Positions 6,807-7,277 of a DNA stretch of 13,406 nt are shown here, in pieces. The notes under the pieces are model-generated. The model was not told where the DNA came from and did no database searches. It saw only the letters and a list, made by a program, of their open reading frames with translations. The position numbers and the translations under genes were made by a program. This stretch comes from a virus (Duplodnaviria > Heunggongvirae > Uroviricota > Caudoviricetes). Positions within the stretch are counted from its first letter, which is position 1. Each line of letters opens with the position of its first letter. The stretch lies in the IMG/VR virus record IMGVR_UViG_2778261447_000002; one strand, 5' to 3'.

Positions 6807-7277
6807 ATGGCAAAGAATTTTGTAGAAGAAGGAAAAACGGTGGCGATTGTTGCCAGTGCAGCCATCAGCAGCGGAGATCTGGTGCAGGTGGGTGATGTTT
6901 TTGCGGTGGCGCTGACCGATATTCCACAGGGTGAAACAGGCGACGGCATGACCGAAGGTGTGTTTATGCTGCCTAAGCTGAAAACGGATGATATGAAAAC
7001 GGGTAAGAAGGTTTATCTGAAGTCCGGAAAAGTTCAGCTGACTAACAGCGGCTCTGATCCGCTGGTCGGGGTTGTCTGGGAAGAGGCTGGTACCGGGAGT
7101 GATGTCGTCGCTGTCAGGATTAACTTTGGTGGTGCCAGGGGAGAAAAGGGGGACACGGGCCCGAGAGGAGAAAAGGGAGAGCCGGGACCTCAGGGGCCAA
7201 AGGGTGAAACAGGTGAACGCGGCCCGGCAGGACCACAGGGGCCGAAGGGCGAAAAAGGCGATCGGGGTGGTTCATGA
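6807..7277 (+). CDS. Small head protein with C-terminal collagen-like Gly-X-Y repeat (possibly DUF2190-like decoration/cement protein)
   Basis: 156 aa. N-terminal ~108 aa ([30 protein letters not shown]...) resembles small proteins found directly after capsid genes. The C-terminus is 15 uninterrupted G-X-Y triplets ([46 protein letters not shown]). ATG 6807 is preceded by GGAG at 6796-6799; the ORF track starts upstream at 6762. Confidence 0.7.
7131..7274 (+). repeat. Collagen-like (Gly-X-Y)n coding repeat
   Basis: 15 consecutive GXY codon triplets rich in Pro, Glu, Lys and Arg, running to the last codons of the CDS. Confidence 0.85.

Follow-up and report, generated by a model that had tools for sequence, protein, structure and literature searches.

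The DNA analysed here, hereafter called the window, is a stretch of 13,406 nucleotides that makes up the entire 13.4-kb contig NOCS01000092.1 (GCA_002549495.1; IMG/VR record IMGVR_UViG_2778261447_000002) and covers the late region of a lambdoid Escherichia coli prophage. Its gene at 6807-7277 encodes a 156-amino-acid protein whose residues 1-108, by their sequence, are a Phage_cement_2 capsid decoration domain, and whose residues 109-156 form a collagen-like tail that reaches the stop codon. The domain fusion is real, well defined, and very rare, and it represents a variation on known phage head fibres and decorated cement proteins, not a new kind of system. We favour, with somewhat better than even confidence, the interpretation that the gene encodes the cement protein of an mEp460/cdtI-like lambdoid E. 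coli prophage with collagen grafted on its natural C-terminus, giving triple-helical capsid bristles of ~14 nm. An earlier reading of the same DNA, referred to below as the original prediction, had placed the gene directly after the capsid gene; it does adjoin the gene for a ClpP-protease/capsid fusion (4693-6720).

The N-terminal domain belongs to a head decoration family

Residues 7-105 match the Pfam family PF09956 (Phage_cement_2, formerly DUF2190) with 75 bits against a cut-off of 24, aligning profile positions 2-103 of 103. The protein also matches PHROG 122, annotated as head decoration, at 1.3e-45, and shows a sub-threshold match to the E217 gp24/Pam3 gp6 cement family. The original prediction of a globular domain of ~108 residues ahead of the repeats, for which DUF2190 and decoration-protein folds had been proposed, thus agrees with the family assignment; the match is to a head-decoration family and not to a non-structural one. 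Sequence searches of the PDB, with the protein and with the family profile, returned collagens or noise only and no solved sequence relative of the domain. Comparison with the lambda gpD profile revealed no similarity (probability 0.6%). NCBIfam holds no model for the domain and gave sub-threshold matches to collagen adhesins only.

Structurally, an AlphaFold2 model of the domain built on a 77-sequence family alignment reached a predicted local distance difference test (pLDDT) score of 92.4, with a low-confidence N-terminal arm of ~10 residues; an alignment of 12 close sequences gave a pLDDT of only 57.7. The fold matches of the model are solely capsid decoration proteins that trimerise at threefold or quasi-threefold positions, and include phiCD508 gp48, the phi29 head-fibre base, the HFTV1 stabilisation protein, Sf11 gp40, Pam3 gp6, the TW1 stabilising protein, XM1, and E217 gp24. 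Lambda gpD and P21 SHP match weakly at the fold level, and the match to the phi29 gp8.5 base is moderate, with a template-modelling (TM) score of 0.50. As modelled, the cement domain is shown to have the decoration-protein fold class. On their capsids, phiCD508 gp48 forms trimers with 420 copies on a T=7 shell, and Pam3 gp6 forms 140 trimers on the threefold and quasi-threefold axes, where an N-terminal loop grips the capsid proteins. In phi29 gp8.5, residues 1-116 constitute a trimeric base at quasi-threefold sites and residues 117-280 a projecting fibre. By analogy with these proteins, we infer that the cement protein would sit at threefold positions as a trimer; the capsid-associated protein of threefold type that had been proposed is thus supported by fold homology.

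The tail belongs to the prophage tail-fibre collagen family

The last residues of the domain, INFG, are followed directly by the tail and then by the stop codon, so that the tail starts exactly where proteins of the family usually end (..V[KR][LI]N[VAG] and stop). The original prediction had described an unbroken series of 15 Gly-X-Y triplets up to the stop; the run is indeed uninterrupted, and with the terminal GGS added the count is 16. By our own estimate, 16 in-register glycines at a glycine frequency of ~8% would arise with a chance of about 1e-17 per site, which excludes a chance origin. In all six frames of the window, no other run of at least five Gly-X-Y triplets was found. The Pfam family Collagen (PF01391) matches the tail with 31.4 bits against a cut-off of 27.2. 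Proline occupies 6/16 of the X positions and aspartate or glutamate 8/16, while the Y positions hold lysine or arginine in 9/16 and glutamine or threonine in 4/16. GPQ-GPK-GE(T/K) motifs recur along the tail. The EPclP collagens of E. coli prophage side tail fibres likewise combine proline and aspartate or glutamate at X with lysine or arginine at Y, and carry a GPQ-GPK-GE/D motif (Ghosh et al. 2012, PMC3368898).

The prophage of E. coli Ch1 (NZ_CP127316), isolated from chicken faeces, is 99.985% identical to the window, with one mismatch and one gap over 13.4 kb. Its side tail fibre of 616 amino acids (locus L132, 12946-14796, minus strand) contains collagen stretches of 45, 37, and 20 triplets, and the first of these is 82.6% identical to the tail at the amino-acid level; they are the closest relatives found. 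At the DNA level, the tail and the Ch1 tail-fibre gene agree in 88% over 74 nt, and in 54/60 positions of the best 60-nt stretch. A donor for the collagen segment was not found among complete E. coli genomes and phage records, where identity among the matches listed was 72-81%. These similarities indicate that the tail is a member of the E. coli prophage tail-fibre collagen family, and not a recent copy of any locus found.

Only two alleles are present in the data. Their four differences all lie at gene nt 402-429 and consist of three synonymous changes and one conservative exchange, E134D, with no glycine lost and no insertion or deletion, while the flanks of the two allele backgrounds differ by about 2%. 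We regard this pattern as a sign of a working gene. The repeat tract had been suggested as a site of length variation. This was not upheld: every full-length copy has 16 triplets, the alleles differ by point substitutions alone, and Tandem Repeats Finder reported no repeat in the collagen DNA. The only internal direct repeat measures 27 nt at 78% identity. We rejected slippage of the tail on the absence of a tandem repeat and the weakness of the direct repeats. A gene-conversion tract from the Ch1 tail-fibre gene was likewise rejected as the origin of the allele differences; that gene is closer to allele A (54/60) than to allele B (50/60), and no allele B-like tract turned up.

The fusion lies within an imported mosaic patch

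Over its first 90 codons, the cement gene is nearly identical to gp06 of mEp460 (266/270 nt, 98.5%). Identity falls to 28/51 nt over the last 17 codons of the domain, the collagen tail has no counterpart in mEp460, and identity then recovers along the next gene, from 12/30 at nt 1-30 through 22/30 at nt 31-60 and 25/30 at nt 61-90 to about 100% beyond. The resulting patch of ~285 bp comprises the last β-strand of the cement domain, the entire tail, and ~25-30 codons at the start of the next gene. Since the identity drops and recovers in this way, and the diverged last strand is still consistent with the family consensus, the patch was acquired through homologous recombination with a far more divergent relative as its source. 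As the patch joins the end of a cement gene to the tail and to the beginning of the gene that follows, the donor relative already had the fusion. Furthermore, the recombination boundaries fall in homologous coding sequence and not at the domain-tail junction, and the fusion therefore predates the transfer. The comparison indicates that the junction is not a recombination scar and that at least two lineages have kept the fusion in frame. No donor lineage was identified.

The fusion is rare and recurs in several assemblies

The head module is present in 1850 of 5426 complete E. coli genomes, two of which (Ch1 and GF4, both poultry-associated) carry the collagen tail. All 16 closely related phage records, among them mEp460, cdtI, Ayreon, and HannyBb, encode a 107-amino-acid protein without a tail, and no match extending into the tail was found in the 49 phage records or the 26 plasmid records with a family member. 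Across ~240 listed family clusters at 90% identity, near and distant, a collagen domain (PF01391) appears in a single one, that of the window protein. Two of 203 loci drawn from GTDB genomes and IMG/VR have the tail, both near-identical to the window. The junction peptide had no match among 241 million JGI metagenome records, and in IMG/VR it identified no contig beyond the two known carriers. A full-length search of a 50%-identity representative library was swamped by long collagens and is uninformative on the family. In the literature searched, we found no report of a cement-family protein with a collagen tail or of a head fibre with a collagen stalk.

Besides the two complete genomes, five further assemblies and two IMG/VR contigs hold an identical or near-identical 471-bp gene. 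In five assemblies, the structural module around it is open throughout. The two full-length protein variants account for 8 and 174 contigs, respectively, and about 190 contigs carry the gene in all. The protein departs by its 48-residue extension from the canonical single-domain architecture, which has 105-113 amino acids and ends near the last β-strand.

Other C-terminal additions are seen in distant DUF2190 proteins. Some carry short Ala/Thr/Gly-rich tails, and the proteins at L115 (1501-2211), L143, and L168 reach 237-238 amino acids with an extra domain of ~130 residues, for which the one scanned (L115) gave no Pfam match. Those at L124 and L197 end in short, Ala/Leu-rich, helical-looking segments that possibly form a trimeric coil. 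The C-terminus tolerates additions, given these extensions and extra domains in other family members, and seems to be a recurrent site of elaboration in DUF2190 proteins.

Proposed collagen bristles on the capsid

In the arrangement we propose, the 108-residue β domain would form trimers that occupy the threefold and quasi-threefold positions of the HK97-fold capsid, held there probably by the N-terminal arm. This would amount to ~140 trimers if the shell is T=7, a geometry suggested by the genome size of the relatives (~44 kb) and by the T=7 shells of homologues. The base would hold three C-termini in register, so that three 48-residue Gly-X-Y chains could zip into one collagen triple helix. 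At a rise of ~0.29 nm per residue, which is textbook collagen geometry, 48 residues would yield a helix of ~14 nm, and the head would thus be covered by short, stiff, and highly charged bristles. The architecture would correspond to the plan of phi29 gp8.5, except that a collagen rod would replace the helical supercoil and the terminal knob would be absent. A trimeric base with a directly adjoining collagen sequence therefore predicts thin head fibres, and from the identity of domain and tail we uphold the original prediction to that effect; helix formation and fibre length are what we infer. The in-frame fusion, the retained ATGA overlap with the next gene, and the open surrounding structural module are further signs of a working gene.

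Speculatively, the most likely role of such bristles would be to let the head adhere, weakly and multivalently, to cell surfaces or to a mucus-like matrix. Comparable adhesion roles were proposed for phi29 gp8.5, T4 Hoc, and SPP1 gp12. A second possible role is that of a C-terminal clamp that stabilises the cement trimer.

Several points weigh against capsid bristles. The 156-amino-acid protein and the prophage particles are known here from genes alone, and the convergence of the C-termini and their outward pointing would follow from analogy to phi29 gp8.5, a fold match with a TM score of 0.50. Chickens, the source of both complete-genome carriers, have a body temperature of about 41 °C. The 37-triplet collagen domain of EPclA melts at 42 °C (PMC3368898), and the tail has only 16 triplets without hydroxyproline. 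Given the melting point of this longer collagen and the origin of the carriers, the short helix could be marginal at 41-42 °C or unfolded. The tail furthermore lacks a terminal globular domain for receptor binding, and a variant this rare (2/1850) could as well be a neutral curiosity as serve a specialised function. With four substitutions, the case for selection is thin. In GF4, the gene adjoins a truncated capsid gene in a rearranged prophage, and the NCBI Prokaryotic Genome Annotation Pipeline (PGAP) annotates the gene as an incomplete pseudogene.

A further elaboration, which we regard as quite unlikely, is that the bristles act as a temperature and surface sensor. The ~140 helices would be folded below ~40 °C and melt near avian body temperature, switching the head between sticky and smooth, and the bristled head would adhere to the host envelope, to mucus, or to collagen-binding adhesins such as YadA-type proteins. 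This would be a collagen counterpart of Ig-domain-mediated phage adherence to mucus, achieved through a tail-fibre module moved onto the head. The idea that head bristles grip the side tail fibres was also considered and was rejected on geometric grounds; a lambda-type tail is ~150 nm long.

Alternative explanations

The original prediction had named an artefact in the repeat region as a possible source of error. Collagen repeats are abundant (29 places in Ch1) and often break short-read assemblies, and contig ends truncate many of the proteins in the cluster, which speaks for a misjoin of a cement gene to a collagen-containing tail-fibre gene. Such a misjoin is effectively refuted, as the same junction, with unique flanks on both sides, recurs in the complete chromosomes of two strains from different countries as well as in five other assemblies and two IMG/VR contigs. 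In addition, identity between the tail DNA and the tail-fibre gene of the same prophage does not exceed 88-90% in any stretch, and no copy closer than the 72-81% matches listed was seen in complete E. coli genomes or phage records. A defective allele, in which an illegitimate insertion destroyed the normal C-terminus and left a non-working protein in a cryptic prophage, is very improbable. For this speak the PGAP label "incomplete; missing C-terminus", given to the gene in Ch1 (L001 8208-8525) as in GF4 (L003 3203-3520), the place of the GF4 copy in the rearranged prophage with the truncated capsid gene, and the Ch1 record, which marks the large terminase and gpW genes as broken. However, the domain is complete, its last β-strand being present as a homologous, family-consistent variant within the full Pfam alignment, and the label merely mirrors a length mismatch with 107-amino-acid references. 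The window, which differs from Ch1 only by the mismatch and the gap given above, and four other assemblies have every head and tail gene intact, the large terminase and gpW among them. As a consequence of the label, the gene has no RefSeq protein record in Ch1 and GF4, the two complete genomes examined.

Two other explanations accept the protein as real and differ from ours in what the tail does. In one, which is possible with the odds clearly against it, the gene is a neutral chimera whose tail is translated and tolerated on a solvent-exposed C-terminus, largely unfolded or melted, and carried along without function in few prophage lineages. Its extreme rarity (2/1850 module-carrying complete genomes, 0/16 close phages, and 0 JGI metagenomes) speaks for this, as do the short tail without a terminal domain, the 42 °C melting point of the longer related collagen, and the variety of C-terminal extensions that the family tolerates; two alleles with four differences have little power to show selection. 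Yet the fusion moved as a cassette between homologous flanks from a divergent relative (55% identity in the adjacent 51 nt) and is thus intact in at least two lineages, with no glycine interruption, no frameshift, and the stop/start overlap retained. By established collagen biophysics, moreover, anchoring on a trimeric base would strongly favour nucleation of the helix, which counts against an unfolded tail. In the other explanation, the helix does form and its role is mechanical: it would tie the cement subunits together and stabilise the cement-capsid lattice, perhaps in a temperature-dependent and reversible manner as in SPP1 gp12. We consider such a clamp as the main role rather unlikely. 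Capsid stabilisation at threefold positions is the known role of the family, the tail has no distal binding domain, and the helical-looking Ala/Leu-rich ends of the distant relatives at L124 and L197 could also zip a trimer; the title of a report on SPP1 gp12 describes a collagen-like, temperature-dependent, reversible capsid binder (PMC4175352). Thousands of tail-less relatives, on the other hand, evidently make stable capsids, a 14-nm rod exceeds what a clamp needs, and SPP1 gp12 is reportedly without effect on capsid stability. Bristles that project from the capsid remain our preferred interpretation.

Comparison with known systems

Phages of the mEp460, cdtI, Ayreon, HannyBb, Gifsy-2, and Fels-1 type share the family, the position of the gene, and the head and tail module with the window. 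Their mEp460-type cement proteins consist of 107-108 amino acids and stop right after the last β-strand (..VPVKLNV and stop), whereas the window protein has a diverged last strand and 48 additional collagen residues. The proteins solved on the capsids of phiCD508 (gp48), Pam3 (gp6), HFTV1, Sf11 (gp40), and TW1 are 16-20% identical in sequence to the window domain, and a fibrous C-terminal extension is reported for none of them. Phi29 gp8.5 has a trimeric base of ~110 residues with a fibre starting directly after it, a plan that the window protein may parallel, and its fold match to the window domain is the moderate one given above. In contrast, it has no detectable sequence similarity to the window protein, its fibre is a 164-residue helix-turn-helix supercoil and not collagen, and its base docks on Ig-like domains of the phi29 capsid protein.

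Collagen-like capsid proteins are not unprecedented, as SPP1 gp12 is a trimeric collagen-like protein that is displayed by the capsid of a siphophage and has been proposed to act in surface interaction. According to its description, however, gp12 has an N-terminal collagen motif and an α-helical C-terminal part, binds the centres of hexamers, and lacks the cement-family domain; in the window protein, the order of domains is reversed and the capsid-binding part is all-β. Regarding the tail, the window protein has the same GP(Q/P)-GPK-G(D/E) collagen type as the EPclPs. These comprise a phage_tail_N domain, a coiled coil, 48-322 collagen residues, and a C-terminal domain, and the collagen domain of EPclA was demonstrated experimentally to form a genuine triple helix without hydroxyproline, with a melting temperature of 42 °C (PMC3368898). 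The window protein is not a member of this group: it shares the collagen module only, sits in the head module, and has no match to PF08400, which is present in the real tail fibre of the same prophage.

Head fibres and decoration proteins are one route by which a phage can acquire additional adhesion or stability, and the latter are also popular as display scaffolds. The gene resembles a natural experiment in which a threefold cement protein received a collagen module of the tail-fibre type at its C-terminus. Should virions carry the protein, it would represent a cement-family head fibre with a collagen stalk, and with 156 amino acids and no hydroxyproline it would provide a compact system for the nucleation of a short triple helix by a trimeric base. 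It would also mean that DUF2190 proteins, which are widespread, are able to present trimeric cargo at their C-terminus.

Gene layout and genomic context

The features of the gene and its surroundings are collected in Table 1. We take ATG 6807 as the start because of the N-terminus MAKNF, which is invariant in the family, and the GGAGA motif 6 nt upstream. An upstream TTG at 6762, given as the start of the cement gene in the list of open reading frames (ORFs), was rejected, being without homology support. The ATGA stop/start overlap at the other end is the arrangement usual for translational coupling; the tail-less cement gene of mEp460 likewise overlaps its next gene, by 8 nt.

Table 1 Position and basis of features in and around the collagen-tailed cement gene (window coordinates).
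Feature	Position	Strand	Basis or remark
Cement protein with collagen tail, 156 aa	6807..7277	+	Translation, Pfam and PHROG matches; gene call in five assemblies; stop included
Phage_cement_2 (DUF2190) domain, residues 1-108; first ~10 residues a low-confidence N-terminal arm, remainder all-β	6807..7130	+	
Collagen-like tail, residues 109-156, 16 Gly-X-Y triplets without break	7131..7274	+	Translation; Pfam Collagen
Shine-Dalgarno-like GGAGA, 6 nt ahead of ATG 6807	6797..6801	+	Sequence reading
ATGA overlap: TGA stop 7275-7277 / ATG of next gene 7274-7276	7274..7277	+	Sequence reading
ClpP-like prohead protease / HK97-fold major capsid protein fusion	4693..6720	+	Pfam CLP_protease, Phage_capsid_4; gene calls; PGAP product name
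Gifsy-2-family head-tail gene, 91 aa	7274..7549	+	PF13856; PHROG 153; alignment to mEp460 gp07
Terminator-like hairpin and T-run between capsid gene and cement gene	6744..6764	+	
Second, GC-rich hairpin between capsid gene and cement gene	~6775-6793		
Mosaic patch, approximate boundaries	7077..7360	+	Nucleotide identity to mEp460

The window begins with genes for a small terminase (DUF1441), a large terminase of gpA type, a gpW-like protein, a lambda-type portal, and the ClpP-protease/HK97-fold capsid fusion. The cement gene lies directly 3′ of the fusion gene and 5′ of the head-tail joining genes, and is followed by the Gifsy-2-family head-tail gene, gpZ, gpU, a gpV-like tail tube protein with an Ig domain, gpG/gpT, and the tape measure protein. 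The ClpP-like protease and the HK97-fold capsid protein share a single frame of 675 amino acids, which is typical of the mEp460/cdtI group, and the product would be the shell that the cement protein binds. A rho-independent terminator is annotated in mEp460 at the spot matching the hairpin between the capsid and cement genes. A terminator there is odd, as the two proteins are expected in a ratio of about 1:1.

The names given to several of these genes in the sources are misleading. The downstream head-tail gene appears as "DNA breaking-rejoining protein" or "ATP-binding sugar transporter", and DUF2190 proteins are frequently named "RecA/RadA family phage recombinase"; for both, PHROGs and solved homologues indicate structural roles instead. 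The +1 frame across the collagen DNA is also open, as a 93-amino-acid ORF at window 7072-7353, and the database entry P0018 is exactly this frameshifted read-through. The ORF looks like a by-product of composition and sequencing error, not a second product.

The Ch1 record flags a frameshift in the large terminase and an internal stop in the gpW-like gene (window 932-3240 against L001 2334-4641), while both are intact in the window; the Ch1 lesions are probably sequencing errors or very recent. In GF4 (L003 1-3120), the capsid gene is reduced to a 114-nt remnant abutting inverted tail genes (J and tail assembly), which indicates a rearrangement between prophages at that point. Just past the prophage tail-fibre genes of Ch1 lies a gene with a YadA C-terminal domain, of the trimeric autotransporter adhesin type (L132 10710-11954, minus strand). 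Yersinia YadA binds collagen; a link between this gene and collagen-bearing virion proteins would be pure speculation.

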